Counted from the first letter of the stretch, positions 1,770 through 13,826 are shown. The stretch: DNA of 24,000 nucleotides from Clostridia bacterium (GCA_017517965.1 JAFWXR010000037.1:121764-145763), one strand, 5' to 3'. Numbers and translations are program-made. Notes: generated by a model not told the origin, from the letters alone.

Positions 1770-1773
1770 AAAA

Positions 1774-1799
1774 GGAGGGCTTGTGAGCCCTCCTTTTTT
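1774..1799 (+). terminator. Intrinsic terminator of the 495..1769 gene
   Basis: Stem ggagggct (1774-1781) / agccctcc (1786-1793), loop tgtg, T tract 1794-1799. An A tract upstream makes it potentially bidirectional. Confidence 0.8.
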
Positions 1800-1809
1800 A
1801 ATTCGGAAT
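1800..1809 (-). repeat. Heptad-repeat remnant (aattcgg aat, 1.4 units of the ATTMCGM family) between two back-to-back terminators
   Basis: Same 7-mer as the long arrays at 3855, 10227, 10823 and 12881, in the same position directly after a terminator T tract. A single short copy could be chance. Confidence 0.4.
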
Positions 1810-1811
1810 AA

Positions 1812-1841
1812 ATAACGGGCAATTCACAAATTGCCCGTTAT
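1812..1841 (-). terminator. Terminator hairpin downstream of the minus-strand PPIase gene
   Basis: Perfect 13-bp stem ataacgggcaatt (1812-1824) / aattgcccgttat (1829-1841), loop caca. It lies 3 nt past the stop codon at 1845-1847 and has T-rich flanks on both strands. Confidence 0.7.
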
Positions 1842-1844
1842 CTT

Positions 1845-2888
1845 TTATTTTATAAGGCTTGAAACGATTTTAACAAGTGCATCGTCGTTGACGTCAACCT
1901 TATCGTCGGCAATCTTTTCCGAAAGGTCGCCCGAAACGAGAGTTGCCCTTGCATTTTCAAGGTAGGTCTCAACCGTGCCAAACTGGTCTTTGATGTCTTC
2001 CTCACGGGTGGGAAGGCGCATTAAAATGTGGTGGCCGTATTCTTCGCTGTCAACGAAGGCATATTCGCCGACTTCTACCGAGAAAGCACCGTCTACGAAT
2101 GCCTGGACGAACTGACCGTTGTCGGTAACAACGTAACCGTCGGGTGACTGTTCCATACCGGGATCTTCGTTGTATTCCTTCATAATTGCGGTAAAGCCTG
2201 CCTCGTCATTTACTGCAAGTGCCTTTACCTTTGCCTCTACGTCTGCATATTTTGCTTCTGCTGTTGCAAGCGCATCACCTTCAAGTGCCTGATAGGTTTC
2301 CGTGTCAACCGTTGCAACGAGAATGTGCTTTATACGCGCGTAATCGTTGTGGAATTTTGCAATGATTTCATCGTCTGTAAGTGCTTTCGTGCCGTGTGCA
2401 CCGTATAAATAGTTTGTAATAGCGGTGTATTTTGTGTTGAATTCCATAAGGTCTTCAACTGCGGAGAATTCAATGCCCCTGTCTTTAAGGTCGCTCTTTG
2501 CGGCGTCTTCACCGCCGAAGCTTTCAAAATAATCCTGCATAATGGTGTCGTATTCCGCCTGCATATCCTCGTTCCACTTAAGACCGAGCTCGTCAAAATA
2601 CTCGTTTGCAGCGAGTGCCTGCTGTATTACTGAAACGGAATATGAAACCACGTACTGATATACCGTCATCTGTTCGGTAAGCTGCTGGTCGGCAACTTCG
2701 TCAAAGGATACGCCGTAGGTTGCTTCCACGTTCTGTATCATATCCGAAAGTGCGAGTTTAAAAAGCTCAGTCGGTATTTCGTTGCCGTTTATCGTGCCGA
2801 GTGAGCCGTCTTTTTTACAACCTGCAAAGCAGGTAAGCATAAGTACCGCTGCAAGAAGCAGAGATACAATTTTTATCGTCTTTTTCAT
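1845..2888 (-). CDS. PrsA-like lipoprotein peptidyl-prolyl isomerase (parvulin type)
   Basis: Signal peptide with lipobox (LLAAVLMLTCFAGC). C-terminal parvulin-like rotamase region (ARIKHILV ... MKEYNEDPGM ... GQFVQAFVDGAFSVEVGEYAFVDSEEYGHHILMR). SD ggagg upstream on the minus strand (2897-2901). Confidence 0.85.
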   Translation of the reverse strand: MKKTIKIVSLLLAAVLMLTCFAGCKKDGSLGTINGNEIPTELFKLALSDMIQNVEATYGVSFDEVADQQLTEQMTVYQYVVSYSVSVIQQALAANEYFDELGLKWNEDMQAEYDTIMQDYFESFGGEDAAKSDLKDRGIEFSAVEDLMEFNTKYTAITNYLYGAHGTKALTDDEIIAKFHNDYARIKHILVATVDTETYQALEGDALATAEAKYADVEAKVKALAVNDEAGFTAIMKEYNEDPGMEQSPDGYVVTDNGQFVQAFVDGAFSVEVGEYAFVDSEEYGHHILMRLPTREEDIKDQFGTVETYLENARATLVSGDLSEKIADDKVDVNDDALVKIVSSLIK

Positions 2889-3068
2889 TTCAAGACCTCC
2901 AAAATTTTTTCATAATTGTATTATATAAAAAATTGCCATAAATGACAATGACTAATTTGTTAATATGTGAACATAATATTACTGTCGGAGGAGATATCGC
3001 CGTTAGTCAAGCGGAAGCGCTGTCGGATGATATGTTTTCCGATAAATGCAGTTGCGAGGATAAAGTCT

Positions 3069-3218
3069 ATGAAAGCTTGTATGGGCGGTATGCTCGTAGG
3101 TCTGGCAGTCGGTGTGACGGTTGCTTCTGTATATCCGATGCCGATGAAAAGATGTACGGTACGAAAAATCAAAAGACAGGTCGGTCGTGCGATTCGCAGT
3201 GTAGAAGACATGATGTGA
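3069..3218 (+). CDS. Small hypothetical membrane peptide (49 aa: one TM helix and a basic C-terminus)
   Basis: ATG at 3069 is preceded by GAGGA (3056-3060). Product: MKACMGGMLVGLAVGVTVASVYPMPMKRCTVRKIKRQVGRAIRSVEDMM. The stop lies 7 nt before the A tract of a strong terminator. The longer GTG-2967 version in the track has no SD. No family recognised. Confidence 0.45.
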   Translation: MKACMGGMLVGLAVGVTVASVYPMPMKRCTVRKIKRQVGRAIRSVEDMM

Positions 3219-3224
3219 CCAAGC

Positions 3225-3252
3225 AAAAAAGCACCCAATCGGGTGCTTTTTT
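3225..3252. terminator. Bidirectional intrinsic terminator
   Basis: A tract 3225-3230, stem gcaccc (3231-3236) / gggtgc (3241-3246), loop aatc, T tract 3247-3252. Confidence 0.8.
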
Positions 3253-3255
3253 GTT

Positions 3256-3273
3256 AATGCGGAATTCGGAATT
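3256..3273 (-). repeat. Heptad array, 2.4 units (aatgcgg aattcgg aatt on +, which reads ATTCCGA ATTCCGC ATT on minus). Left arm of cassette 1.
   Basis: Tandem 7-nt periodicity read directly. It starts 3 nt after the terminator T tract. Confidence 0.8.
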
Positions 3274-3280
3274 AAGGAAA

Positions 3281-3301
3281 GAAACTTCGTGCCGAAGTTT
3301 C
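3281..3301. repeat. Hairpin module gaaacttcg-tgc-cgaagtttc associated with the heptad arrays
   Basis: 9-bp stem. Near-identical stem arms (gaaacttcc / ggaagtttc) recur at 12855-12874. In both places the hairpin sits 6-7 nt from the inner end of a heptad array. Confidence 0.6.
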
Positions 3302-3340
3302 GATTAAATTGTAGGGGAGGACCTATATTTCCTCCCGTTT

Positions 3341-3562
3341 TCATTTCTTTGATTTTGGATAGGGTTCTTTACAATCCGTTCTGCCTGCAAGATAATCCAT
3401 ACTCGTATTAAGAGCATCTGCAACCTTGATACATTGCTCAAAACTTAAATATCTTTTTCCGTTTTCGATTTTTGAATAGTCGCTCTGGTCTATCCCTGTG
3501 AGCATTTGCATTTTTACCTGTGTATATCCGCGTTCTTTTCGCAGTTCTTTAAGCCTGTTCAT
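3341..3562 (-). CDS. XRE-family helix-turn-helix transcriptional regulator (73 aa)
   Basis: MNRLKELRKERGYTQVKMQMLTGIDQSDYSKIENGKRYLSFEQCIKVADALNTSMDYLAGRTD is a typical HTH_3 domain. The start at Met15 of the track ORF (ATG 3562-3560) has SD aggtga 4 nt upstream. The longer 3604 start would overlap the divergent promoter and adds a non-homologous extension. A GGGAGG/CCTCCC hairpin (3315-3336) follows the stop. Confidence 0.85.
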   Translation of the reverse strand: MNRLKELRKERGYTQVKMQMLTGIDQSDYSKIENGKRYLSFEQCIKVADALNTSMDYLAGRTDCKEPYPKSKK

Positions 3563-3597
3563 AACATCACCTGATATTATTATGGCAAATTGACCTA

Positions 3598-3626
3598 TTG
3601 ACATTAGGGTGAAACTGACCTATAAT
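3598..3626 (+). promoter_or_regulatory. Consensus sigma-A type promoter for the 50-aa gene (TTGACA-17-TATAAT)
   Basis: TTGACA 3598-3603, 17-nt spacer, TATAAT 3621-3626, about 20 nt upstream of the SD gaggtga and the ATG at 3647. It overlaps two direct copies of AAAYTGACCTAT (3587-3598 and 3612-3623). Confidence 0.65.
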
Positions 3627-3646
3627 TTGGTGGAAGAGGTGATATT

Positions 3647-3799
3647 ATGGCAGATTATAAACAGATGTATTTAACACTGCTTGATGCGACCGAAAAAGCA
3701 ATAAATCAACTTATTTCGGCACAGCGTGCCTGCGAAGAGATTTATATTCTTTCTGCCAAGGAAGAAGAAGAAAATAAAAAACCGATTTCTGTTATTTAA
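3647..3799 (+). CDS. Small hypothetical protein (50 aa, predicted helical, acidic tail), divergent partner of the XRE gene
   Basis: Below the 60-aa cut-off of the ORF track. ATG 3647 with SD gaggtga 4 nt upstream and a perfect promoter. Product: MADYKQMYLTLLDATEKAINQLISAQRACEEIYILSAKEEEENKKPISVI, stop TAA 3797-3799. No family assigned. Confidence 0.6.
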   Translation: MADYKQMYLTLLDATEKAINQLISAQRACEEIYILSAKEEEENKKPISVI

Positions 3800-3854
3800 C
3801 GGGACGCCGTCCCCTATGATAAGGTAATAGTGAAAAGTGAATAAGTTCGGTTGA

Positions 3855-3886
3855 AATTCCGAATTACGCATTCCGAATTCCGAATT
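3855..3886 (+). repeat. Heptad array, 4.4 units (attccga attacgc attccga attccga att). Right arm of cassette 1.
   Basis: Exact 7-nt register read directly. It ends 5 nt before the A tract of the rny terminator. Confidence 0.9.
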
Positions 3887-3891
3887 GAAAT

Positions 3892-3921
3892 AAAAAAGAG
3901 ACCAATTTGGTCTCTTTTTTT
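3892..3921. terminator. Bidirectional intrinsic terminator (serves rny on minus and the 50-aa gene on plus)
   Basis: A tract 3892-3897, stem gagacc (3898-3903) / ggtctc (3909-3914), loop aattt, T tract 3915-3921. The rny stop codon (3920-3922) lies in the tract. Confidence 0.8.
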
Positions 3922-5476
3922 ATTTCGCAACGTCCTGTGCGCGCTTTTCTCTTATTACGTTTACCTTTATCTGACCGGGGTATTCAAGTTCACCCTCAAT
4001 CTTCTGGGCGATTTCCCTTGCGAGAATTACTAATCTGTCGTCACTTATCTTTTCGGGGTTGACCATAATACGAACTTCACGGCCTGCCTGAATTGCAAAT
4101 GACTTTTCAACGCCGTCAAAGCTCGTCGTAATTTCTTCAAGCTTTTCAAGACGCTTTATGTAGTTCTCAAGGTTTTCTCTTCTTGAACCGGGGCGTGCAG
4201 CGGAAACTGCATCTGCCGCCTGAACGAGAGCAGCAATCGTATACTTGGGAGCAACGTCACCGTGGTGGCTTTCGATAGAATTGACAACCACGTCATTTTC
4301 CTTATACTTCTTTGCAACGTCCGAACCGAGCTGAACGTGTGAACCTTCAATCTCATGGTCGAGCGCCTTGCCGAGATCGTGCAGGAGACCTGCCCTTCTT
4401 GCGAGATTTACGTCAAGACCGAGCTCGGATGCCATAACGCCTGCTATATGCGACACTTCAATAGAGTGGAGAAGAACGTTCTGACCGTAACTCGTCCTGT
4501 ATTTGAGTTTACCTAAAAGTTTGACAATTTCGGGGTGAAGATTTACGATGCCTGCTTCAAGAGCAGCCTTTTCACCCTCCTGCTTGATGATGTTGTTGAT
4601 GTCTTTTCTCGTCTTATCAACGATTTCTTCAATCTTTGCGGGATGAATACGACCGTCGTGAATAAGCCTTTCGAGTGACAGACGTGCAATTTCCCTGCGG
4701 ACAGGGTCAAAGCAGGAAACTGTGATAACTTCGGGAGTATCGTCGATTATAAGGTCAACGCCCGTAAGTGTTTCAAGTGCCTTTACGTTTCTGCCTTCAC
4801 GGCCGATTATACGGCCCTTCATCTCATCGCTGGGGATGGGGACTACCGATATGGTTGCTTCTGCAACGTATTCGGGTGCACAGCGCTGTATAGCCTGAGC
4901 AATGATTTCTCTTGCTTTTTCCGTGCTTTCGTCGTTGAATTTCTGCTCCGACTCCTTTATCTTGAGGGCACGCTCGTGATCGAGCTCCTGCTCAAGCTGG
5001 GAGAGAAGCATTTCCTTTGCCTGCTCCGTGGTGTAGCCCGAAATTCTTTCAAGCGCTTCCCACTGCTGCTTTTTGATGTTTGCAACATCCTCCATCTGTA
5101 CTTCTACTTCGTGGAGTTTTTCGGCAAGTTTTTCTTCCTTCTTTTCGATTGCATCGTACTTTTTGTCGATGCTCTCTTCCTTCTGATTCAGACGCCTTTC
5201 CTGGTTCTGAACTTCTTTTCTGCGCTCCTTGAGCTCGGCTTCCATTTCCGTTCTGCTGCGCAGGATTTCTTCCTTAGCTTCGAGTATTGACTCTTTTTTC
5301 TTGCTTTCAGCCGCCTTGATAGCGTCATTAACTATTCTTTTTGCCTCTGTTTCGGCAGAGCCGATCTTGCTTTCGGCAACCCTTTTTCTGTGGCTTATGC
5401 CGATGAAGAATGCAATTACAAAAACAAGTAAAAGAGCAACCACGCCGACAACTAACTGAACTGGTGTAAACGGCAT
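3920..5476 (-). CDS. rny: Ribonuclease Y
   Basis: N-terminal TM helix, long Glu/Lys-rich coiled coil, KH domain ([29 protein letters not shown]) and HD domain ([18 protein letters not shown] ... [10 protein letters not shown] ... ESHHGD). 518 aa, typical for rny. SD aaaggag upstream. Confidence 0.95.
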
Positions 5477-5539
5477 TTTCCGGTTTCTCCTTTTCTGATA
5501 TTTAAGATTAAGCCTTTAAAGGCATATAATCTAACTTAT

Positions 5540-5569
5540 ATTATAAATTTTAATTGTACTTTTTGTCAA
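5540..5569 (-). promoter_or_regulatory. Candidate rny promoter (TTGACA-18-TATAAT on minus strand)
   Basis: Complement of tgtcaa at 5564-5569 and of attata at 5540-5545. A 12-nt palindrome gcctttaaaggc (5512-5523) lies in the resulting 5' UTR. Confidence 0.5.
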
Positions 5570-5606
5570 GAAAAGTTTAACATTATATTAAGAAAAATAT
5601 GCTACA

Positions 5607-5635
5607 TTTACAACGCCGATGTTTTATGTTATAAT
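5607..5635 (+). promoter_or_regulatory. Candidate rnf operon promoter (TTTACA-17-TATAAT)
   Basis: TTTACA 5607-5612, 17-nt spacer, TATAAT 5630-5635, 36 nt upstream of the preferred rnfC start. Confidence 0.6.
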
Positions 5636-5670
5636 AACGGGTGGCAAATTACGAAAAGTTGAGGTATAAA

Positions 5671-6858
5671 ATGCTTTTAACATTCAGAGGCGGCGTTGAC
5701 GCCGGCAATAAAAGTGAATTTTTAAGCGGCTCGGTAATAAATACGATTGGTGCAGGGGAAACGCTTGTGTTGCCCGTTCCGTTTGGCTGTACACCCGTGG
5801 TTGAAGCGGGGGAGAGGGTGCTTGCAGGGCAGGTTGTTGCCGTGTCCGACAATGAGTACGGCGCATCTCTGTCGAGTGCGGTGTCAGGTACTGTTGTAAA
5901 GGCAACCGCATCACGTATTACCATTGAAAATGATGGTGAAAATACGCTATGTGACAGGCTTGAGGCAGATGACCCGATAACGCTTCTCCGTGACGCAGGG
6001 GTGACTGACCGTTTCGGTTTTTCTGCTGCGCAGAAGGTGGCAAACGCACCGGCACTCTACATCATCAGTTGCGTTGAGGACCAGCCGTATATGGTAAACG
6101 TGCAGGCTCTTTTGTCCTGCAGGGCTGACGAGTTTATCGGCGGTATAAAACTGCTCGAAAAAATAAGTGAAAATGCGCACATTGTGATTTGTACGACGCC
6201 CGACCTTTCTGAGTATGCTTCAAAGATTTCCGAGGCGCTTATGGAGGATGAAAGGGTACAGTTTCTCACGGTCAGCGGAAAGTATCCGCAGAGCTGGCCC
6301 CATATTTTAAAGCGTACCGTTACGACTGAGGAGAGTTGCGAAGTTATAGGGACGGAGGAGCTTTGTAATATTTACAGGGTGTTTAAGACGAGAATGCCCG
6401 TGACAGAAAAAATAGTTACCTTAAGCGGTGACTGTATGAGACGTGCAGAGGTCTTTTCGGTGCCCTACGGTACCTGTGTGTCAACCCTCATTAAAGCGGG
6501 GACGAGCTTTAAACGTGAACCGCTGAAGGTTGTCAAGGGCAGTGTTATGAACGGGGACGCCATATACAATATGCGTTCGCCCATAGATCGCACCGTATCA
6601 AGCGTGCTGACGCTTTTTGACCATCAGCACCGCTACGCAGGCGAATCGCATTGTATAAGCTGCGGAAGGTGTGACAACGTCTGTCCCGAAGGATTAAGCC
6701 CCGGAAGTATAATCAAGGCGTATAAGTTAAATGATACGGCGACACTGAGCAGGCTTAGCGTAAGCTCGTGCACACTGTGCGGTTGTTGCTCGTTTATATG
6801 TCCCGCAAGGGTAAATCTGCCGCTTATTTTAAGAAGTGCGCAGCTTATGGGAGAATAA
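5671..6858 (+). CDS. rnfC: RnfC-like subunit of an Rnf-type electron transport complex (divergent nucleotide/flavin-binding region)
   Basis: Preferred start is ATG 5671 (SD gaggt 5 nt upstream, product MLLTFRGGV...) rather than GTG 5641. RnfC-like N-terminus (FRGGV, SSAVSGTV), a YPQ motif, an SLBB-like middle region and two C-terminal 4Fe-4S motifs (CISCGRCDNVCP, CTLCGCCSFICP). First gene of the C-D-G-E-A-B order. Confidence 0.8.
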   Translation: MLLTFRGGVDAGNKSEFLSGSVINTIGAGETLVLPVPFGCTPVVEAGERVLAGQVVAVSDNEYGASLSSAVSGTVVKATASRITIENDGENTLCDRLEADDPITLLRDAGVTDRFGFSAAQKVANAPALYIISCVEDQPYMVNVQALLSCRADEFIGGIKLLEKISENAHIVICTTPDLSEYASKISEALMEDERVQFLTVSGKYPQSWPHILKRTVTTEESCEVIGTEELCNIYRVFKTRMPVTEKIVTLSGDCMRRAEVFSVPYGTCVSTLIKAGTSFKREPLKVVKGSVMNGDAIYNMRSPIDRTVSSVLTLFDHQHRYAGESHCISCGRCDNVCPEGLSPGSIIKAYKLNDTATLSRLSVSSCTLCGCCSFICPARVNLPLILRSAQLMGE

Positions 6859-6861
6859 TTT

Positions 6862-7875
6862 ATGAAAAAACATAAAAAACTTCTGCTTGTGTCGGCTTCG
6901 CCACATCTCAAGACGGCACAGGCTACATCGTGGATAATGTTCAACGTGCTTATTGCACTTTTACCTTCGTTTGTTGCATCGTGTTACTTTTTCGGACGAA
7001 GGGCGTTATTTATAACACTTATTTCGGTATCTTTTTCACTCGGCTTTGAGTATCTTTCAAGGCTGATGATGGGCAAACTTCCCACCGTAAGCGACCTCTC
7101 GTGTGTCGTGACGGGTGTTATCATTGCCTTTTGTCTGCCCGTAACGGTGCCCGTGTGGCTGGTTGCAGTAGCAAACTTTTTTGCTATTGTAATCGTCAAG
7201 CAGTGTTTTGGCGGAATAGGGCTCAACATCGTAAATCCGGCGGCGGCGGCGCTGTCGTTGCTGATGGTTTCCTTCACTGCCTCCATGACGAAATTTATTG
7301 CACCGCTTCTTGGCTTTGCGCAGATAATTCCCGAGGATGCAACGGTTGTGACAACGGCACTCTCACAACTCAAAGCAAGCGGGCAGACCCCTCAGAATTT
7401 ATTTAACATCTTTATGGGAAATACCGCAGGCAATATAGGTGAGACGTCGTCGTTTCTGCTTCTTATAGGCGGTGTATACCTGATTGTAAGACGTATTTCA
7501 AACTGGCGTATTCCCGTATCATTTATAGGTACGGTTGCGATTATTTCGCTTGTAAAGTCGTTTGACTTTACATTTATGCTGACGCAACTTTTCAGCGGTA
7601 CGCTTTTCCTTGCGGCATTCTTTATGGCGGTTGACCCCGTTACGTCGCCTCAGTCGCAGTCGGGCAAGGTGGTTTTCGGTGTTATATGCGGTGTTGCCAC
7701 CTGCTATATACGCTTCTTCGGCACTTATACGGAGGGTGCTGTGTTTGCGGTGCTCATTGCAAATCTCGTAACGCCTGTTATTGACAGCCTTTTACCCGTA
7801 AAATATAAGGGCGTCCGTACGGTTGAAAAGAAGAAACTGTCGGATTTTCTGCCTAAAAGGAGGAAAGCACAATGA
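6862..7875 (+). CDS. rnfD: RnfD subunit (polytopic membrane, NqrB/RnfD family)
   Basis: SASPH near the N-terminus, FGGIGLNIVNPA, DATVVTTALSQLK (position of the flavinylated Thr), AVDPVTSP and GAVFAVLIANLVTPVID. All match RnfD hallmarks. Confidence 0.9.
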   Translation: MKKHKKLLLVSASPHLKTAQATSWIMFNVLIALLPSFVASCYFFGRRALFITLISVSFSLGFEYLSRLMMGKLPTVSDLSCVVTGVIIAFCLPVTVPVWLVAVANFFAIVIVKQCFGGIGLNIVNPAAAALSLLMVSFTASMTKFIAPLLGFAQIIPEDATVVTTALSQLKASGQTPQNLFNIFMGNTAGNIGETSSFLLLIGGVYLIVRRISNWRIPVSFIGTVAIISLVKSFDFTFMLTQLFSGTLFLAAFFMAVDPVTSPQSQSGKVVFGVICGVATCYIRFFGTYTEGAVFAVLIANLVTPVIDSLLPVKYKGVRTVEKKKLSDFLPKRRKAQ

Positions 7876-8438
7876 AAGAATTTTTCCTCTCTACGCCCCT
7901 TCGCCGTGTGATAACGGCAGGTGTTGCAATTCTTCTGTCGTTCGGCATTATGGTCGGTGTGCTCACCCCTCTGCTTATATTCGGTGAGGACAGGGTTATA
8001 TCGGCTGCCGTAGCAAACGTTTTTCCCACGGCGACGGATTTTGAAGAAGAACACATAAGGTATGACAATGAAATAGAGTCTCTCTATGCCGTTATGACCG
8101 ATGAAACGGTGGCAGGTTACCTCTATAACGTAAATGCAAACGGCATTTCGGGACAGATAAATTTCTACGTCGGTCTTGATATGACGGGCAGGGTTATAGG
8201 TATATATTTCCCTTATCTTGATGAGCCCGTTTCCTACGGTGATATGACCGAGTTTAACAATTTTATAGCCTCTTTTACCGGCAGAACAGGCCCCTTTGCA
8301 GGGGTTGAGGGTGCGGCAACGCTCGCAGGGGACATATCTCTCGTAGGCGGTGCACATCACACCTGTTACGCGGTTATCGGCGGTGTCAATGCCGTGACGG
8401 AGGCTTTTAACGATGAATTTGCAAATGAGGCGGAATAA
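7872..8438 (+). CDS. rnfG: RnfG-like subunit (FMN_bind-type fold, membrane anchored)
   Basis: ATGA overlap with the rnfD stop, SD aggagg. N-terminal anchor helix, GISGQINFYVGLDMTGRVIG core, C-terminal ...LVGGAHHTCYAVIGGVNAVTEAF aligning to the SGATxTS region of RnfG/NqrC. Confidence 0.8.
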   Translation: MKEFFLSTPLRRVITAGVAILLSFGIMVGVLTPLLIFGEDRVISAAVANVFPTATDFEEEHIRYDNEIESLYAVMTDETVAGYLYNVNANGISGQINFYVGLDMTGRVIGIYFPYLDEPVSYGDMTEFNNFIASFTGRTGPFAGVEGAATLAGDISLVGGAHHTCYAVIGGVNAVTEAFNDEFANEAE

Positions 8439-9029
8439 ATGAAAATACGAAACTTCGCCTCGGGTGATATTTTTACCAGAAACCCGCTTTTGACGGGAGT
8501 TTGCTTTTTTACTCTCGTTATCACAATGACGATATCACTTCTCAACGGTCTGGCAACGGGCATCTTTGTGACCTGCGCCACCATGGTATCGCTCGTTGTG
8601 AGAAAGCTTATATCGCTTTACATTGACGAGAGGTGGCATCTTGCTCTTTACGCTCTGGCTGTCTGTGCCGTAATATCCGTCGGTGAACTGGCGGCAACGG
8701 CAATTTATCCCGACTTTGCTTCGAGAATGGCGCTCTATCTGCCTCTTGCGGCGATATACTGTCTTTCCGACAGGTCGTTTGACTTTACGGCAAAGCCTAT
8801 GCGTGCAACCGTTGAGACAACTCTTTTCAACTGTATCGGTTTTACGGCTGTCTGCACTGCAATAGGTACCGTGCGTGAGTTACTGGCTTTCGGCACGTTA
8901 CTCGGCATACCGGTGATGAAAAATTATCTTAAGATGCCTGCTATGGTGCTTCCAATAGGCGGTATGATAGTTTTCGCATTCGGTCTTGCACTTATTAACC
9001 ACATTAAAGGCAAAGGAGGCAAAATATGA
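8439..9029 (+). CDS. rnfE: RnfE subunit (NqrD/RnfE family membrane protein)
   Basis: RNPLLTGVCFF and LYLPLAAIYCL align to the NPxLxxxLGLCP and LPLIVTNC motifs. A GTVRELLAFGTLLG motif is present. Six hydrophobic helices. Correct position in the operon. Confidence 0.85.
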   Translation: MKIRNFASGDIFTRNPLLTGVCFFTLVITMTISLLNGLATGIFVTCATMVSLVVRKLISLYIDERWHLALYALAVCAVISVGELAATAIYPDFASRMALYLPLAAIYCLSDRSFDFTAKPMRATVETTLFNCIGFTAVCTAIGTVRELLAFGTLLGIPVMKNYLKMPAMVLPIGGMIVFAFGLALINHIKGKGGKI

Positions 9030-9583
9030 TAGAACTGCTTTCTCTTGTCATAACGGCAATGATTGCCGAAAATCTGCTCTGTGCAAGGGCTATGGGTATG
9101 GAAACGGCACTTTTTGACCGTCACGACTACCTGCATTTCGGCGTATTCACGGTTGTTTCGTCTACGGTGCTCTCACTTTTTGCGTGGCTTTTTGACTTCT
9201 TTGTGTTTGCCCGTTTCGACTTACAGTTTCTTCGTGTTTTTGCCTATATACCGCTTCTTTTTACGGTTGTATGGGCACTGCAGTATCTGCCGAAAATAGG
9301 CGTTCATCTTGAAAAATACAAAAATGCGCTTATTTTCAACAGCGCTCTGCTCGGTGTTGCGGTAATTACCGCAGTTAAGACCTATCCTGTCTATTACGCC
9401 GTGCTTTACGGCTTTTTTGCAGGACTCGGATACATCGTTGCACTGCTTTTGTTTAACAAACTGTGCAGCAGGATAAGTAATGCCGACCTGCCCCGTGCAT
9501 TTGTGGGTATGCCCTCAAAACTTCTTATTCTTGCCCTGATGTCTCTTGCTTCAATGGCATTTACGGGAGGTGTTACGGTATGA
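9026..9583 (+). CDS. rnfA: RnfA-like subunit (NqrE/RnfA family membrane protein, divergent)
   Basis: ATGA overlap with the rnfE stop, SD aaggagg. C-terminal ...ADLPRAFVGMPSKLLILALMSLASMAFTG matches the RnfA tail (VPxxFxGxxIxLIxAGLMSLAFMGF). Correct position in the operon. Confidence 0.8.
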   Translation: MIELLSLVITAMIAENLLCARAMGMETALFDRHDYLHFGVFTVVSSTVLSLFAWLFDFFVFARFDLQFLRVFAYIPLLFTVVWALQYLPKIGVHLEKYKNALIFNSALLGVAVITAVKTYPVYYAVLYGFFAGLGYIVALLLFNKLCSRISNADLPRAFVGMPSKLLILALMSLASMAFTGGVTV

Positions 9584-10197
9584 TTATTGCACTGAAAATA
9601 TTACTTGCGATTGTAATCGTCGCAGGAAGCGGTGCCCTTTGCATATTCTTTCTCAAGGATAAGATTCCTGCCGAGAAGAAGGGGCAGTCGGTGCCGACTC
9701 AAAGGCTTACGGCTGTCGTTGCCTGCTGCGGTAACGAGCAGAGTACCGACGTTTCTTTCGACTATGCGGGCGAGCTTACCTGTGAATCGGCGTCGCACCT
9801 TTTCGGTGGCGACAAGAGTTGTCCGTATGCCTGCATCGGCTACGGTGACTGTGAAAAGATCTGTCCCGAAAATGCAATTACCATGAAAAAAGGCCTGCCG
9901 GTCATAGATTCACTCAAATGCACCTTTTGTAAGAAGTGTATTGAAATATGTCCCAAGGGACTGATAAGACCGCAGAGCTCGTCGTTCTCCTACTACGTTG
10001 CGTGCAGTAACAAGCGTTTTTCCAAGACCGAAAAGTATTGCGATACGGGCTGTAACGGCTGCGGTAAGTGCATAGAGGTATGCGAAAAGAAGGCAATTTC
10101 CTACAACGGCAGACGAGTTATAATAGACGATAATCTCTGCGATTTATGCGGAAAATGCATAGAAGTCTGCGACAGAAACGTAATAAAACACGTGTAG
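9580..10197 (+). CDS. rnfB: RnfB-like ferredoxin subunit (short form: N-terminal anchor plus poly-ferredoxin region)
   Basis: ATGA overlap with the rnfA stop, SD gggaggtg. N-terminal TM helix, then CPYACIGYGDCEKICP, CTFCKKCIEICP, CNGCGKCIEVC and CDLCGKCIEVC cluster motifs. Last gene of the operon, followed by a terminator. Confidence 0.8.
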   Translation: MIIALKILLAIVIVAGSGALCIFFLKDKIPAEKKGQSVPTQRLTAVVACCGNEQSTDVSFDYAGELTCESASHLFGGDKSCPYACIGYGDCEKICPENAITMKKGLPVIDSLKCTFCKKCIEICPKGLIRPQSSSFSYYVACSNKRFSKTEKYCDTGCNGCGKCIEVCEKKAISYNGRRVIIDDNLCDLCGKCIEVCDRNVIKHV

Positions 10198-10226
10198 AAA
10201 AAGGCATCCAATGGATGCCTTTTTTT
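10198..10226. terminator. Bidirectional intrinsic terminator after rnfB
   Basis: A tract 10198-10202, stem ggcatcc (10203-10209) / ggatgcc (10213-10219), T tract 10220-10226. Confidence 0.8.
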
Positions 10227-10258
10227 AATTCGGAATTCGTAATTCGTAATTCGGAATT
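10227..10258 (-). repeat. Heptad array, 4.4 units (aattcgg aattcgt aattcgt aattcgg aatt on +). Left arm of cassette 2.
   Basis: Begins at the nucleotide immediately after the terminator T tract. Exact 7-nt register. Confidence 0.9.
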
Positions 10259-10265
10259 GAGGTTG

Positions 10266-10505
10266 TTAAAATGTTTCGTTATCTTTTTCAAAAATCTTCA
10301 TTGTAAGTCGGGTGGCTGTGTCAATGCCTTCTTCGTAATATTCCTCCATCATAATCTCTGATTGTTGCAGTTTCAGCAGGCTGATTGAATGATACAATTT
10401 TTTCTGTTCTTCACTTAAACTTTCAAGTAGATTATTTTGAAGTTCTCTGATTTTTTTGCTGTATTCTGAATATTGGGATTGTCTGTGAGAATTTTCAAAA
10501 AACAT
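10266..10505 (-). CDS. Small hypothetical helical protein (79 aa), divergent partner of the RHH gene
   Basis: ATG 10505 with SD gaggt 5 nt upstream on the minus strand. Product MFFENSHRQSQYSEYSKKIRELQNNLLESLSEEQKKLYHSISLLKLQQSEIMMEEYYEEGIDTATRLTMKIFEKDNETF has heptad-like hydrophobic spacing. No family confidently recognised. Confidence 0.6.
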   Translation of the reverse strand: MFFENSHRQSQYSEYSKKIRELQNNLLESLSEEQKKLYHSISLLKLQQSEIMMEEYYEEGIDTATRLTMKIFEKDNETF

Positions 10506-10518
10506 AGTATACCTCGAT

Positions 10519-10552
10519 ATATGTTATTAATATGTTATAAATCATAACATAT
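10519..10552. promoter_or_regulatory. Operator-like cluster of the 9-mer ATATGTTAT (two direct copies 11 bp apart plus one inverted copy)
   Basis: ATATGTTAT at 10519-10527 and 10530-10538, and ATAACATAT at 10544-10552. Copies 2 and 3 form a perfect 9-bp inverted repeat with a 5-bp spacer. A fourth copy at 10591-10599 overlaps the SD/ATG of the RHH gene. Confidence 0.55.
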
Positions 10553-10597
10553 TAAAGAAACTTAAGTCAACATATACTCTATGTGAGGTGATATGTT

Positions 10598-10786
10598 ATG
10601 AATGACAAACTCATTATAAACAAGAGGAAACTGAAAGGTGATGACGGATACAAAACCTTTTCAGTGAGGATAAAAGACGAAACGGTAGAAAACTTGAATA
10701 AATTGGCAAAAGAAACAAACCGTTCAAGAAATGAATTGATAAATATTTTGTTGGAATATGCTATAGCAAACAGCAAAATCGTGTAA
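10598..10786 (+). CDS. Ribbon-helix-helix (CopG/Arc/MetJ-like) DNA-binding protein, 62 aa
   Basis: SD gaggtg 7 nt upstream. KTFSVRIKDETVENLNKLAKETNRSRNELINILLEYAI follows the beta-strand, helix, helix pattern of RHH repressors. Confidence 0.75.
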   Translation: MNDKLIINKRKLKGDDGYKTFSVRIKDETVENLNKLAKETNRSRNELINILLEYAIANSKIV

Positions 10787-10822
10787 TTTCAATGATTTTT
10801 GATGAAATCAAAAATCTACCAT

Positions 10823-10854
10823 AATTACGCATTCCGCATTCCGAATTCCGCATT
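10823..10854 (+). repeat. Heptad array, 4.4 units (attacgc attccgc attccga attccgc att). Right arm of cassette 2.
   Basis: Exact 7-nt register. It abuts the terminator A tract at 10855. It is preceded by the hairpin gatttttga/tcaaaaatc (10794-10816) and the spacer TACCAT, the same spacer as at 12875-12880. Confidence 0.9.
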
Positions 10855-10886
10855 AAAAAAGAAGGACTTAAAGTCCTTCTTTTATT
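10855..10886. terminator. Bidirectional intrinsic terminator whose stem-loop contains the stop codon of the minus-strand DUF21-CBS gene
   Basis: A tract 10855-10860, stem gaaggact (10861-10868) / agtccttc (10872-10879), T-rich 10880-10886. The stop codon complement tta lies at 10868-10870. Confidence 0.75.
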
Positions 10887-12175
10887 GTTACCGTTATTTC
10901 TTCTGCCATTGTTTCGCTTGCTTTTGTTACCGCTATTGACAGACCCTCATACTCGATTTTCTGACACTGGGCAGGGATGTTTCCAAGCATCTCCGTAAGC
11001 CAGCCGTTTACGGTTAATACGTCAAGGTCTTCGGGCATTTCAAGTGAAAAATAATCGAAGAAAGCATTTATTTCGGTTGAACAAAGCACTTTATACGTGT
11101 TCTCACCGACTTTCTTGATATCTTCAATCGCTTCGTCACTCTCGTCCCATATCTCACCGACAAGTTCTTCTATTATATCCTCTATCGTTACGATACCAGC
11201 CGTGCCGCCGTATTCATTTACGACAATCACAATGTGAGTGTGCGTTTTCTGCATATTGCTCAGCAGTACGTCAAGATGCATACCCTCTGCCACGAACGTG
11301 GGCTCGAGAAGTATATTTTTGAGGGCAAAACCGTCTTTGGCATAGTTTAAAAGATAGTCCCTCGTGTGAAGTATGCCGACGATATTGTCCGTCGTCTCGG
11401 AATACACGGGAAGGCGTGAATACCTTTCCGTTTCTATGACGGAAAGAATCTCCTCCTGTGAGGCATCTGCCGACACGAAAACAACGTTTTCACGGGGCAT
11501 CATTACGTTTTCCGCAGTGAGCGCATCAAGCTTAAAGACGTTCTTTATGTAACTGATTTCATCGCTGTCAAACGTACCCTCGTCACCGCCTGCATCGAGC
11601 ATAAGCTCAATATCCTCCTGCGAAACCGCCTCTTCCTTTTCATTCGGGTCGATACCGAAGAGACGCAGTACGCCGTTTGTCGAAACCGTAAGAAGCCATA
11701 CGATAGGTCTGAGTGCAACCGCAAGTCCCGATATTGAACCGCAGACTGCTTCTGCAAACTTTTCCTTATGCTTCATTGCCACACGCTTGGGTACAAGTTC
11801 ACCGAGTACAAGTGTGAAGAATGAAAGCACGAGCGTTATCACAATGACCGATGCCGTGTTTACCGTACCGTATTGTGAAGCAGGCATATTGAAGGCCTTG
11901 ATGATAAAGCCTGTCAGCCTTTCGGCAAAATTGTCTGCCGCAAAAGCTGAGCCGAGAAAGCCTGCAAGCGTTATGCCTATCTGGATGGTTGAGAGAAAAC
12001 GTGTCGGCTCTTCAATCATCTTGAGCATTTTGACGGCTTTTTTGTCCCCGTCCTCCGCACGTGCTCTGAGTTTGATTTCGTTGAGTGATATTACGGCAAT
12101 CTCCGTTGCCGCAAAAAATGCATTGAGTAAAATTAGAATTAGCTGCAACAAAAGTTGTCGGGCTATGTCTGACAT
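10868..12175 (-). CDS. Hemolysin-family / CNNM-type protein (DUF21 + CBS pair + CorC_HlyC), third paralog in the window
   Basis: 435 aa. N-terminal DUF21 helices (LLNAFFAATEIAVISL), MMPRENVVFV, a CBS pair, GIVTIEDIIEELVGEIWDE and a C-terminal CorC_HlyC-like domain. Confidence 0.9.
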   Translation of the reverse strand: MSDIARQLLLQLILILLNAFFAATEIAVISLNEIKLRARAEDGDKKAVKMLKMIEEPTRFLSTIQIGITLAGFLGSAFAADNFAERLTGFIIKAFNMPASQYGTVNTASVIVITLVLSFFTLVLGELVPKRVAMKHKEKFAEAVCGSISGLAVALRPIVWLLTVSTNGVLRLFGIDPNEKEEAVSQEDIELMLDAGGDEGTFDSDEISYIKNVFKLDALTAENVMMPRENVVFVSADASQEEILSVIETERYSRLPVYSETTDNIVGILHTRDYLLNYAKDGFALKNILLEPTFVAEGMHLDVLLSNMQKTHTHIVIVVNEYGGTAGIVTIEDIIEELVGEIWDESDEAIEDIKKVGENTYKVLCSTEINAFFDYFSLEMPEDLDVLTVNGWLTEMLGNIPAQCQKIEYEGLSIAVTKASETMAEEITVTIKEGL

Positions 12176-12251
12176 GATGTCCTCCTATAAATATTGAAAT
12201 GTATATATATTACAGTAAAACAATGTGTTTGTCAAATTTATTACATAATTG

Positions 12252-12280
12252 TTGATTTTTATTTACAGTTATTTTAAAAT
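12252..12280 (+). promoter_or_regulatory. Candidate promoter (TTGATT-17-TAAAAT) for the ECF S-component-like gene
   Basis: TTGATT 12252-12257, 17-nt spacer, TAAAAT 12275-12280, 29 nt upstream of ATG 12309. Confidence 0.45.
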
Positions 12281-12308
12281 TGACTGTATGAACAGGGGGA
12301 GATTTAAA

Positions 12309-12836
12309 ATGTCAAACGTGAAAAAGACGGTCATTTCGGCACTGTGTGTCGCTCTGTGTGTCGTGCTGCCGATGGCTTTTCATGCTATACCCGGGGCGGC
12401 AAATGTATGCTCGCCCATGCATATTCCCGTGCTTTTGTGCGGTCTTATCTGCGGTCCGCTGTACGGTCTGCTTTGCGGTCTCGCAGGACCTGCTTTGTCA
12501 ACGCTTCTGACGGGTATGCCACCTGCGGCGTATCTGCCGAGTATGCTTGCCGAGCTTGCCGTTTACGGTCTTGTAACGGGCGTTATGATGAGGCTTGTAC
12601 ACACCGGAAAAAAGTATGCCGACCTTTACATAAGTTTAGTTACCGCAATGCTTATGGGCAGGGTGGTTGCAGGTATTCTCAGGGCATTTGTTTTTGCCCC
12701 CGGAAGTTACTCGATGAGTGTCTGGATAACGAGTTATTTTATTACCTCATGGCCGGGGATAGTTATTCATCTCATCCTCGTGCCGACGGTATATTTTGCA
12801 GTTAAAAAAAGTAATGTTTTAACGGTTAATTCGTGA
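12309..12836 (+). CDS. ECF-transporter S-component-like membrane protein (substrate unknown)
   Basis: Preferred start is Met21 of the track ORF (ATG 12309, SD ggggga 8 nt upstream). SPMHIPVLLCGLICGPLYGLLCGLAGPALSTLLTGMPP ... MLAELAVYGLVTG matches the PMHIPVLLxG...GMP signature I associate with ECF_trnsprt-type S components. No EcfA/EcfT genes are adjacent. Confidence 0.7.
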   Translation: MSNVKKTVISALCVALCVVLPMAFHAIPGAANVCSPMHIPVLLCGLICGPLYGLLCGLAGPALSTLLTGMPPAAYLPSMLAELAVYGLVTGVMMRLVHTGKKYADLYISLVTAMLMGRVVAGILRAFVFAPGSYSMSVWITSYFITSWPGIVIHLILVPTVYFAVKKSNVLTVNS

Positions 12837-12854
12837 ATTGCACCGTTATTCAAT

Positions 12855-12874
12855 GAAACTTCCAAGGAAGTTTC
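12855..12874. repeat. Hairpin module gaaacttcc-aa-ggaagtttc (second copy of the 3281-3301 module)
   Basis: Arms differ from the 3281-3301 copy at one position per arm, and the change is compensatory (g:c becomes c:g). It is followed by TACCAT and then the heptad array. Confidence 0.6.
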
Positions 12875-12880
12875 TACCAT

Positions 12881-12912
12881 AATTCCGCATTCCGAATTCC
12901 GCATTCCGAATT
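12881..12912 (+). repeat. Heptad array, 4.4 units (attccgc attccga attccgc attccga att)
   Basis: Perfect alternation of the two commonest units. It abuts the terminator A tract at 12913. Confidence 0.9.
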
Positions 12913-12943
12913 AAAAAAAGCAGTCCGTCGGGACTGCTTTTTT
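12913..12943. terminator. Bidirectional intrinsic terminator (lipid kinase gene on minus, ECF-S-like gene on plus)
   Basis: A tract 12913-12919, stem gcagtcc (12920-12926) / ggactgc (12931-12937), loop gtcg, T tract 12938-12943. It lies 1 nt from the stop at 12945-12947. Confidence 0.85.
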
Positions 12944-12944
12944 C

Positions 12945-13826
12945 TTATCTTATTATCTGTATCGTGTCGTGTAAACAGCGTATTTCCGCCGTCTTGAAGC
13001 TGCCTCCGTATTCACCGTCAACCGTCCAGCCTATCTTGTGATTAACTGTAAAGGCAAAGTCCTTGCCATGAAAGAATGAGACCATATCCGTGTCGAATTT
13101 GTTGAGAGTCAGCGAGGTTATTATCTTGTTGAATTCAATAATGTCTTTCGGCGCTTTTACAAGCATAATTTCAAAGATACCGTCAGTAAAATCAACGAGG
13201 TCTTTATCAAGTTTTATCATACCTGCCACCGAGGTCGAATTGCTCACCGCACAATAGAGATAATCACCCTCTATTTCGGTGCCGTCAACCGTTATTTTTG
13301 CGTGGTACGGCTTTATTTCACCGAGGCTTTTTATACCCTCGAGCACGTATGCAAAGTGGCCGAGTGAATTCTTTAAATTCTGCGGTGTCGAGTAGGACGT
13401 TTTCGTAAATGCACCGAAGCACGCTATGTATGAAAAATACCTGCCGTTCATTCTGCCGATGTCAAAATACTTCGGTTCACCGTTTATGATTGCCTTTATC
13501 GCCGAAGGTATGTCTTTGGGCAGACCGAGGCTTGAAGCAAGGTCGTTTGTCGAGCCTGCCGGGATGTAACCTATCGGAATCGGCTTTTCAAGCGACATAA
13601 CGCCTGCTATCGTTTCGTTGAGCGTACCGTCACCGCCCACGCATATGACCGTGTCAAAATTTTCACCGTGCTCGGTGATATAATCCCTCGCATCACCTGA
13701 TGACGTGGTTATGTGTACGACGGGGTCGATACCGTGTGAGCAGAGGGGCGAAATTATATCGTATAAAGCCGTTTTCGACTGTGTTTTACCTGCTTTGGGG
13801 TTTACTATAAGTAATACGTCTTTCAT
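12945..13826 (-). CDS. Diacylglycerol kinase family lipid kinase (DagK/YegS/BmrU type)
   Basis: LLIVNPKAGK N-terminus, the VICVGGDGTLNE nucleotide-binding motif and GYIPAGSTNDLA. 293 aa. 4-nt overlap with the upstream nth stop. Confidence 0.88.
   Translation of the reverse strand: MKDVLLIVNPKAGKTQSKTALYDIISPLCSHGIDPVVHITTSSGDARDYITEHGENFDTVICVGGDGTLNETIAGVMSLEKPIPIGYIPAGSTNDLASSLGLPKDIPSAIKAIINGEPKYFDIGRMNGRYFSYIACFGAFTKTSYSTPQNLKNSLGHFAYVLEGIKSLGEIKPYHAKITVDGTEIEGDYLYCAVSNSTSVAGMIKLDKDLVDFTDGIFEIMLVKAPKDIIEFNKIITSLTLNKFDTDMVSFFHGKDFAFTVNHKIGWTVDGEYGGSFKTAEIRCLHDTIQIIR

Follow-up and report, generated by a model that had tools for sequence, protein, structure and literature searches.

ATTMCGM heptad arrays form the inverted ends of small intergenic cassettes in gut Clostridia and other bacteria

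The 24,000-nt stretch of DNA considered here (Clostridia bacterium, GCA_017517965.1 JAFWXR010000037.1:121764-145763; the whole stretch is referred to as the window) contains six sites inside 13 kb at which a heptad of the type ATTMCGM is repeated head to tail, each site being located between open reading frames (ORFs). These (ATTMCGM)n arrays mark, in inverted orientation, the two ends of discrete small cassettes, which are empty, carry a gene for a four-helix-bundle protein or carry other cargo. The cassettes make up a family not described before, which occurs in gut Clostridia and other bacteria and in its standard version carries the four-helix-bundle gene, and the window holds two cargo-bearing copies, one truncated copy and one solo remnant. 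The family is documented by the architecture of its ends, by an excess of inverted array pairs, by a fixed array length of 31 nt, by differences in content and units between strains and by the link to the four-helix-bundle gene. That the arrays serve as recognition arrays at the inverted ends of selfish intergenic cassettes, similar to intervening sequences (IVS) and miniature inverted-repeat transposable elements (MITEs), is regarded as probable, if with some reserve. Of greatest interest is that an Avd-like, horizontally shared gene is consistently paired with (ATTMCGM)4ATT arrays.

Arrays as ends of discrete cassettes

Within the window, array A1 (3256-3273, minus strand; 2.4 units, on the plus strand AATGCGG AATTCGG AATT) and array A2 (3856-3886, plus strand; 4.4 units, ATTCCGA ATTACGC ATTCCGA ATTCCGA ATT) are the left and right inverted ends of cassette 1 (3256-3886) and enclose 3274-3855. 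Cassette 2 (10227-10854) has array A3 (10227-10258, minus strand; 4.4 units) as its left and array A4 (10824-10854, plus strand; 4.4 units, ATTACGC ATTCCGC ATTCCGA ATTCCGC ATT) as its right inverted end, with 10259-10823 enclosed. Array A5 (12882-12912, plus strand; 4.4 units, ATTCCGC ATTCCGA ATTCCGC ATTCCGA ATT) is paired with a 12-nt degenerate left remnant, AATTCGTGAATT (12828-12839, minus strand), both delimiting the truncated element (12828-12912), and the solo array remnant AATTCGGAAT (1800-1809, minus strand; 1.4 units) lies between two convergent terminators. These six sites had been picked out by an earlier reading made from the nucleotides only (the sequence-only reading), whose coordinates agree within 1 nt with those given here, and the equal length which it reported for the four long arrays holds, all of them consisting of 4 units + ATT, i.e., 31 nt. 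The pairing of the arrays had escaped that reading: they form two inverted (-)...(+) pairs which bracket cassettes of ~600 bp. Tandem Repeats Finder returned the four long arrays with a period of 7 and 4.4-4.6 copies, and the two-unit pattern ATTMCGMATTMCGM, with one mismatch allowed, matched the window 13 times as compared to a mean of 0.11 in 100 dinucleotide-preserving shuffles. The worry that the motif might be an artefact was settled by six independent assemblies of the same strain (99.99-100% identity), in all of which the arrays recur, so that they are real. Short-read contigs were found to end exactly at arrays (L124 covers window positions 3855-12908 and L126 begins at 3857), which is the behaviour of a multi-copy repeat in an assembler.

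On the inner side of A1, A4 and A5 a short hairpin is followed by a 7-nt linker and then by the array. For A1 this comprises the linker AAGGAAA (on the array's own strand TTTCCTTA) and the subterminal hairpin GAAACTTCG-TGC-CGAAGTTTC (module H1; 3274-3301, minus strand), for A4 the subterminal hairpin GATTTTTGAT-GAA-ATCAAAAATC and the linker TACCATA (10794-10823, plus strand) and for A5 the hairpin GAAACTTCC-AA-GGAAGTTTC (module H1) with the linker TACCATA (12855-12881, plus strand).

Beyond the window, a genome scan (one genome per species, three units + ATT) yielded at least 120 loci; a metagenome scan for CCATA followed by an array, for which 120 loci were listed, and a separate scan of viral contigs were added, both counts being lower bounds. 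Two of the three large locus sets were ascertained through the arrays themselves, and the loci compared are fragments of 1 to ~20 kb. At least hundreds of array loci are distributed across genomes, metagenomes and viral contigs. Among the genome-scan matches listed, arrays of mixed A/C units belong to Oscillospiraceae, Ruminococcus and other metagenome-assembled genomes (MAGs) of Clostridia, and mostly uniform ATTACGA arrays to Cyanobacteria, Acidobacteriota, Planctomycetota, Bacteroidota, Chloroflexota and others. Five positions of the unit are invariant and only A or C occurs at the other two, whereby different units are mixed within one array. Among the matches listed, 31 nt is the modal length, accounting for 110/194 metagenome arrays, 73/228 viral arrays and 27/54 mixed arrays of the genome set. 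Adjacent arrays at most 3 kb apart, again among the matches listed, formed (-)(+) pairs in 22 of 51 cases in the genome set and in 42 of 66 cases in the metagenome set, as compared to an expectation of 25%, and the gaps between the paired arrays listed cluster at 125-140 bp and at 366-432 bp.

The end architecture was assessed with 75 unique modules ascertained without reference to any hairpin. In 32 of these the array is preceded, at a distance of 6-8 nt, by a perfect hairpin of 5 bp or more, as compared to 58 of 2400 random positions; the overall free energy of the 5' and 3' flanks of the arrays did not differ, only the position-specific hairpin test being significant. The hairpins of the end modules have 13 different stem cores, and most of their loops, as read on the ATTMCGM strand, are GAA, GGA, GCA, GTA, GCAA or GTAA, whereas the uniform-unit arrays of other phyla lack the end hairpin. 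Read outward, one end consists of an AT-rich stretch, then a short GC hairpin whose loop is GNA or GNRA, a 7-nt linker with the consensus xACCATA and (ATTMCGM)4ATT.

Variants of the arrays were observed at three loci. In L221 (2230-2500) and L161 (700-730 and 3776-3800) the palindrome GAACC-N-GGTTC lies within the outer array, as ...CCGAATT GAACCAGGTTC CGAATT, at both element ends, as if it were a nested insertion within the heptads. In L225 (2480-2620) ATTATGC/ATTATGA arrays, having TG for CG in every unit, stand beside a normal ATTCCGM array and lie in a tandem duplication of a ~100-nt module.

Two element forms were identified. The ORF-less form (about 190 bp, with a 125-140-bp core and three hairpins) is represented by ~15 copies in both orientations among the matches listed and is laid out as array(-), TATKGT, hairpin, AT-rich stretch, central hairpin CACAGGGCGAAAG-N-CTTTCGCCCTGTG, AT-rich stretch, hairpin, ACCATA, array(+), the central hairpin CAGGGCGAAAG...CTTTCGCCCTG being common to these copies. 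The gene-bearing form (about 480 bp) has a core of 366-432 bp with one PF05635/TIGR02436 four-helix-bundle gene, and this 115-aa helical-bundle protein is the only recurrent ORF between arrays at the loci listed. Such genes, bounded by the inverted repeats, were found at L094, L177, L189 and in the L141 group (one locus, eight samples), further at L027 (an unclassified bacterium) and L388 (a viral contig); the window is not among them, its cargo being XRE and ribbon-helix-helix (RHH) genes. A search with the L141 protein gave homologues of 70-83% identity named Oscillospiraceae, Faecousia, Ruminococcus, Syntrophomonadaceae and Synergistaceae, many of them on very short contigs, and arrays flank each of the three homologues picked by protein alone (L256; L266, whose protein bears the NCBI name Syntrophomonadaceae; and L276, from a Synergistaceae MAG), which are likewise bounded by inverted repeats. 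In each of these three the array in K orientation (AATKCGK) lies just upstream of the ribosome-binding site (RBS) and start codon. For L256 and L266 the stop codon marks the start of the M-oriented array; the stop codon of L276 is overlapped by a K-oriented array, with a short hairpin and, at a distance of ~60 nt, the M-oriented array behind it. Of two more distant PF05635 genes, one in L020 and one in L130, that of L020 is flanked by 14-nt inverted tandem repeats.

As to the surroundings of these genes, that of L256 (441-3287) lies between an N6/N4 methyltransferase and a ResIII helicase and that of L266 (1-3188) between an SNF2 helicase and DUF4391/DUF4145, contexts which look like restriction-modification or defence operons. 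Downstream of the array-flanked gene of L027 (540-1010), ~5 tandem units of 100-130 nt were observed, each ending in TCGTAATTCCTAATTCGTAATT.

The window cassettes and their counterparts in relatives

Both window cassettes sit between the terminators of convergent core genes, cassette 1 having a region of small ORFs and RNase Y as neighbours and cassette 2 rnfB and a CNNM transporter. Cassette 1 carries the gene of an 87-aa XRE/HTH_3 regulator (3341-3604, minus strand) and a 50-aa ORF (3647-3799, plus strand) which matches no family, is conserved in the relatives L127 and L130 and is preceded by a sigma-70-type promoter (3598-3626, plus strand) matching TTGACA-17-TATAAT perfectly. Cassette 2 carries the genes of a 79-aa DUF6809 protein (10266-10505, minus strand) and of a 62-aa RHH protein of the CopG family (10598-10786, plus strand), both absent from L130. 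Between them lies a divergent promoter/operator region (10506-10597, no strand assigned) with an operator-like palindromic repeat (10519-10560), in which an 11-nt tandem repeat is accompanied by its inverted copy (ATATGTTAT...ATAACATAT); this is a likely operator of the RHH protein.

The closest relative compared, L130, is a JGI (Joint Genome Institute) metagenome contig with 97-98% nucleotide identity to the window in the flanking genes. At the site of the solo remnant it has 2.4 units (AATTCGG AATGCGT AATT) as compared to 1.4 in the window. A3 and A4 are kept in L130 at 4.4 units, differing only by A/C at M positions, i.e., by unit swaps; their interior is reduced to 97 bp with three hairpins, window positions 10266-10786, exactly both ORFs, being missing, and this "empty" core shares the three-hairpin plan of the ORF-less element. 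The A5 module (~12820-12912) is absent. Of cassette 1, L130 has an inverted allele with 88% identity, flanked by other inverted heptads (left AATGGAA AGTTGAA AATTGAA..., right ATTTTCA ATTTTCA) which lie in the same phase and against the same two terminators as window cassette 1. The same inverted allele was found in L127 (~92% nucleotide identity), which has ATTTTCA/ACTTTCA heptads at the positions of A2 and A4 and no ATTNCGN unit anywhere. L135 (~82%) shows the order XRE gene, its own terminator, GAAACTTC-TAC-GAAGTTTC, CACCTTA, a 4.4-unit ATTCCGM array and then a terminator, this module adjoining rnfB, not RNase Y. Neither cassettes nor heptads occur at this region in L128, L129 and L132, whose identity to the window is ~77-83% (RNase Y protein for L128 and L129, nucleotide for L132). 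At two other loci unit turnover was followed across samples, whereby the odd unit sits at position 2, 3 or 4 and the total stays at 4.4. The sequence-only reading had proposed to compare orthologous spacers, and this comparison revealed that interior content and unit number differ between strains; in view of the differences among these relatives, it is the arrays and their interiors that change fast within a region which is conserved for the rest.

Several further observations concern the same region. The position of A3 is occupied in L127 (2637-2679; reverse complement 6863-6940) by another family of small repeats, an 18-nt unit composed of CGATATG and a small GC hairpin (e.g., GTGCTTCGCAC) being present there ~5 times. 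In L130 (19906-20130), CAATTCATG / CATGAATTG motifs bracket small hairpins upstream of a PF05635 gene located 12 nt before prfA, these modules being a third intergenic repeat family in the species. In the truncated element of the window, the stop codon (12834-12836) and the last five codons of the gene for the S-component of an energy-coupling factor (ECF) transporter derive from the left remnant described above; the C terminus and called length of this protein vary among strains (172-182 aa; compare L130 3121-3639). The block of RNase Y and rnfCDGEAB (window 3887-10226) is inverted as compared to L128 and L135, and its ends fall in the spacers holding A2(+) and A3(-), the history being too complex at 82% identity. 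The block of CNNM and ECF S-component genes (10868-12836) is inverted versus L135 and absent from L128. In the window strain (L121 16055-18330) MurJ/MATE and AraC-family genes lie between the CNNM and HAD hydrolase genes, L130 being without both, and no arrays are found at this junction in the comparison of the two contigs.

Mode of action and competing explanations

With the arrays as ends of selfish cassettes, each arm would act alone, as a recognition array of five MATT cores at 7-nt spacing. That each arm is read alone is suggested because the arms of a pair are close to random in complementarity: they are identical at 69% of M positions as compared to 59% with permuted partners, and a mirror or direct order of units between arms is not preferred (55 vs 56 matches of 109). 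A conserved direct order, suggested by L071 and L266, was discarded on the full set, which gave this even ratio. A trans-acting factor would read the arrays, on DNA or on single-stranded nucleic acid, and would move or exchange the cassettes, the arrays themselves changing by unit slippage under selection for four units. The reader is probably a protein: two positions of each unit accept A or C only, bases which both expose an amino group, with a keto group on the other strand, and degeneracy of this kind is seen with direct protein read-out. A multi-subunit or multi-repeat reader is suggested by the MATT core, which returns every 7 nt, five times per 31-nt array, and is constant across ATTMCGM, ATTATGM and ATTTTCM heptads, and a reading of the heptads by some multi-subunit protein is plausible. 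The active form of the ATTMCGM strand may be single-stranded; loops of the type C-GNA-G are typical of very stable DNA mini-hairpins, e.g., d(GCGAAGC).

Several findings weigh against cassette mobility. An all-against-all census of flanking ORFs at the first 120 loci listed revealed no transposase, recombinase or RAYT beside any copy, its only recurrent families being ABC transporters, sensor proteins and three four-helix-bundle genes. No direct repeat indicating a target-site duplication was found in the flanks of 24 elements, which tend to GTTC|...|GAAC or to A-rich sequence. Among the fetched loci there is no clean pair of filled and empty sites, all strain differences being replacements or mosaics (mosaic replacements, nested insertions and tandem module duplications). 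The cargo genes of the window do not recur as array cargo in the other loci compared, and the four-helix-bundle gene of L130, which belongs to the window's species, is accompanied by the CAATTCATG-hairpin repeats of another family. The same element was met in two genomic contexts only once, at L180, a poor contig bearing adaptor sequence. L166, L195 and L180 are short contigs joining a four-helix-bundle element to differing left flanks, the left flank of L166 and L195 being part of the ORF itself and L180 carrying Nextera adaptor sequence; they are probably assembly chimeras and therefore weak evidence for a second insertion site. Finally, arrays also flank ordinary genes (purN, a tadA-like deaminase gene, atpF/atpH, dcd and UDG), and therefore many of them may be solo ends or simple repeats. 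The sequence-only reading had considered termini of a miniature element homing to terminators, of which the first part is strengthened by the inverted repeats, the ~190-bp ORF-less copies and the strain-variable interiors, and the homing to terminators is lost.

As to the identity of the reader, it is a speculative and rather doubtful proposal that the Avd-like four-helix-bundle protein has its cognate nucleic-acid sites in the arrays. The closest solved relative of the cassette protein, 2rld, was deposited with five chains, and the 31-nt array has exactly five MATT cores: single-stranded DNA or RNA of one array could wrap once around a pentamer. TRAP, which binds spaced triplets, offers a parallel for such wrapping. 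PF05635 is homologous to Avd, the accessory protein of diversity-generating retroelements (PMC10053308). If the proposal were true, a gene of ~115 codons and two arrays would make a complete selfish element, whose product moves, copies or protects its own cassette and acts in trans on the more numerous ORF-less and cargo-bearing derivatives such as the window copies; this would also account for the spread of rRNA intervening sequences and of many free-standing TIGR02436 genes.

Among the alternatives to the recognition arrays, an intervening sequence acting at the RNA level survives best, although it is still unlikely. Here the K strand, (AAUKCGK)n, would pair with the M strand, (AUUMCGM)n, to form a stem of ~31 bp which loops out the cassette and is cut by RNase III, so that insertion does the host transcript little harm and the arrays exist mainly to form the stem. 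This would suit the four-helix-bundle cassettes between co-oriented cistrons, where the K array precedes the RBS and the M array runs from the stop codon; it would also suit the perfect palindromes formed by 4 of 16 array pairs, the definition of the PF05635 family from rRNA IVS elements and the tandem heptamers at the RNase III site of the Coxiella IVS (PMC4990558). The window cassettes, however, have divergent genes, internal promoters and terminators outside them, and therefore no single transcript should hold both arms. The idea is weakened further by arms whose variable positions match hardly better than those of random partners, by their often unequal lengths, e.g., 31 vs 17 nt, and by solo arrays, which are common (70 of 120 metagenome loci among the matches listed have a single array).

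Less credit is given to plain hypervariable simple-sequence repeats (SSRs), arising by polymerase slippage in AT-rich spacers with neither function nor mobility of their own, for which inverted pairs and hairpins would be by-products of crowded intergenic mosaics. Units are indeed gained, lost and shifted between strains, and sister lineages carry other heptads at the same spots (ATTTTCM in L127 and L130, ATTATGM in L225). An excess of heptamers in bacterial intergenic DNA, with inverted pairs and variation between relatives, is documented (PMC4692102), and two composition-matched control heptads also occurred in viral contigs, at 35 and 16 loci. ATTMCGM is nevertheless at least 3-7 times commoner than these controls. 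Slippage alone would further be expected to give a free-running copy number, and what was found despite frequent slippage is a sharp 31-nt mode at 4 units + ATT; it leaves equally unaccounted for that units are mixed yet accept only A or C at two positions with the other five invariant, that a fixed hairpin and 7-nt linker stand on one side only and that the arrays consistently flank a conserved, horizontally shared gene.

The recognition arrays have next to be held against the terminators by which the window arrays lie. The terminators at the solo remnant are that of a CNNM/CorC gene (495-1769), with A6, a GGAGGGC stem and T6 (1768-1799, plus strand), and the terminator hairpin (1812-1841, minus strand) of a PpiC/SurA-like gene (1845-2888, minus strand). 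Cassette 1 has outside its left end a bidirectional terminator with A6, a GCACCC stem and T6 (3225-3252, plus strand) and on its right the bidirectional terminator (GAGACC stem; 3892-3921, minus strand) of the RNase Y gene (3920-5476, minus strand). Cassette 2 is bordered by the terminator (GGCATCC stem; 10198-10226, plus strand) of rnfB (9580-10197) and the bidirectional terminator (GAAGGACT stem; 10855-10883, minus strand) of the CNNM gene (10868-12175, minus strand), and A5 by the bidirectional terminator (GCAGTCC stem; 12913-12943, minus strand) of a DAGK-like gene (12945-13826, minus strand). The sequence-only reading was accurate here in that 0-5 nt separate each window array from the A tract belonging to a GC hairpin with a T-run, the stems of which are unrelated to each other, as it had listed them; the ATTMCGM reading direction points toward the adjoining terminator at every window array. 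As a separate observation, the rnfB terminator stem is GGCATCC-AAT-GGATGCC in the window and GCACCC-CTTA-GGGTGC in L130, with flanks 98% identical, and in L130 and L127 this terminator resembles the window terminator at 3225-3252.

From this contact a terminator-coupled RNA module could be derived, in which single-stranded (AUUMCGM)4 binds an oligomeric RNA-binding protein and tunes termination or read-through. In its favour are the terminators which follow 5/5 window arrays after 0-5 nt when read in the transcribed direction of the inner gene, and the order 5' hairpin, G-poor unstructured stretch, terminator, which resembles a small RNA derived from a 3' untranslated region (UTR). It is very improbable all the same: a terminator-like hairpin 3' of the array, found at 5/5 window arrays and at 3/4 in L130 and L135, was found elsewhere at only 7/153 and 2/180 arrays (1-5%) among the matches listed, as compared to 1-2% of random positions. 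Between co-directional genes, 29 of the arrays listed are sense and 40 antisense, a difference which is not significant; arrays occur there on either strand, which therefore speaks against a fixed mRNA role. Further, many of the arrays are followed by an RBS or coincide in part with a stop codon, and no Rfam family matches. The distribution thus speaks against the RNA site tuning termination, and the ideas of homing to terminators and of a 3'-UTR module, as put forward earlier, do not extend beyond this lineage. Terminator adjacency is a local feature of this genome, not the way in which the family works. The outer flank of the arrays is A-rich for ~7 nt, and the elements would abut terminators here only because they were placed in convergent-gene spacers, where terminator A tracts supply the A-rich sequence favoured at the outer junction.

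Scarcely credible, finally, are operator iterons for the RHH or XRE repressor of a cassette, in the manner of the omega repressor on its 7-bp heptads and as the first idea of the sequence-only reading had it: although cassette 2 encodes the 62-aa RHH protein and cassette 1 an XRE protein, and the 7-bp period matches omega operators, the arrays lie at gene 3' ends hundreds of bases from promoters, cassette 2 has its own operator-like palindrome, L130 retains both arrays without the RHH gene, two cassettes with different regulators share the same arrays, and elsewhere arrays flank unrelated genes, the cargo genes not travelling with them.

Relation to known repeats and intervening sequences

Rfam returned no match and no rRNA for the window at the gathering threshold, only a thiamine pyrophosphate (TPP) riboswitch and tRNA, away from the elements, for ten loci with ORF-less elements, and a single chance-level match for one element at E up to 1. 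In a literature search no paper was found to contain an ATTMCGM array sequence, no description of four-helix-bundle genes flanked by heptad arrays was found, nor anything relevant on MITE or foldback elements in Ruminococcaceae, in line with the statement of the sequence-only reading that it did not recognise a described repeat family. Free-standing PF05635/TIGR02436 genes and rRNA IVS are widespread, and to our knowledge nobody knows how they move and what their role is. Inverted (ATTMCGM)4ATT arrays with a subterminal hairpin provide a searchable DNA signature for such genes, which is common to Oscillospiraceae and relatives, one Synergistaceae MAG, viral contigs and ORF-less derivatives and which makes binding of the protein to the arrays, transposition, recombination and processing testable questions. 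The arrays also matter to assemblers and annotators: they break short-read assemblies of gut Clostridia, mark spots at which small accessory genes are swapped or inverted between strains and can be mistaken for a terminator-associated regulatory RNA.

In lifestyle, the cassettes are closest to repetitive extragenic palindromic (REP) sequences, bacterial interspersed mosaic elements (BIMEs), REPINs and MITEs (Correia, RUP, BOX, Nezha), which are likewise short, non-coding, palindromic, high-copy intergenic repeats. The likeness extends to the location near gene 3' ends and terminators, to mosaics of hairpin modules, to strain differences and to assembly breaks, and as in MITEs terminal inverted repeats surround a short non-coding core in several similar copies. 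The ends differ, however, being tandem heptads and neither one imperfect palindrome nor a terminal inverted repeat of the conventional kind, and in the loci compared neither a target-site duplication nor a DDE transposase partner, as known for MITEs, was found. A REP unit is a 20-40-nt imperfect palindrome with a conserved 5' tetranucleotide, and the RAYT gene is flanked by REPs; the ends described here consist of tandem heptads and a separate hairpin, and no Y1-transposase-like family recurs at the 120 loci listed.

The operators of omega (RHH) repressors, known from plasmids of the pSM19035 family, consist of heptads with a 7-bp period. They share with the arrays contiguous 7-bp units in direct or inverted orientation and, in one cassette, a small RHH gene nearby, but differ in sequence, and the arrays lie at 3' ends instead of promoters and persist without the RHH gene.

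In form, the closest known systems are heptameric intergenic repeats. The short tandemly repeated repetitive (STRR) heptamers of cyanobacteria were reportedly described by Mazel in 1990, and the intergenic heptamers GGGAATC of Xanthomonas and GGGGAYT of Nostoc by Rehm et al. 2015 (PMC4692102). Like the ATTMCGM arrays, these SSRs are head-to-tail 7-nt units in many dispersed intergenic copies, often as inverted pairs, which occupy the same spacers in relatives with variable length and sequence. The ATTMCGM arrays are set apart in that their unit number is held at four + ATT, that they are mixed at two A/C positions and that they have a one-sided hairpin and linker and bound discrete cassettes, including those with a conserved protein gene.

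In content, finally, the cassettes come closest to the PF05635 IVS of 23S rRNA as found in Coxiella and Leptospira, where one small PF05635 gene is bounded by inverted repeats, as at the related loci named above, although the window copies have no PF05635 gene; in the IVS of Coxiella burnetii with its PF05635 ORF, tandem heptamers (GACAGAT) occupy the 5' end, at the RNase III site (PMC4990558). The rRNA IVS behaves as a selfish insertion tolerated by the host, to which the cassettes are likened here. In contrast to it they lie between protein-coding genes and not in rRNA helices 25 or 45, their inverted repeats are whole heptad arrays, and they exist also as ORF-less derivatives and as derivatives with other cargo.

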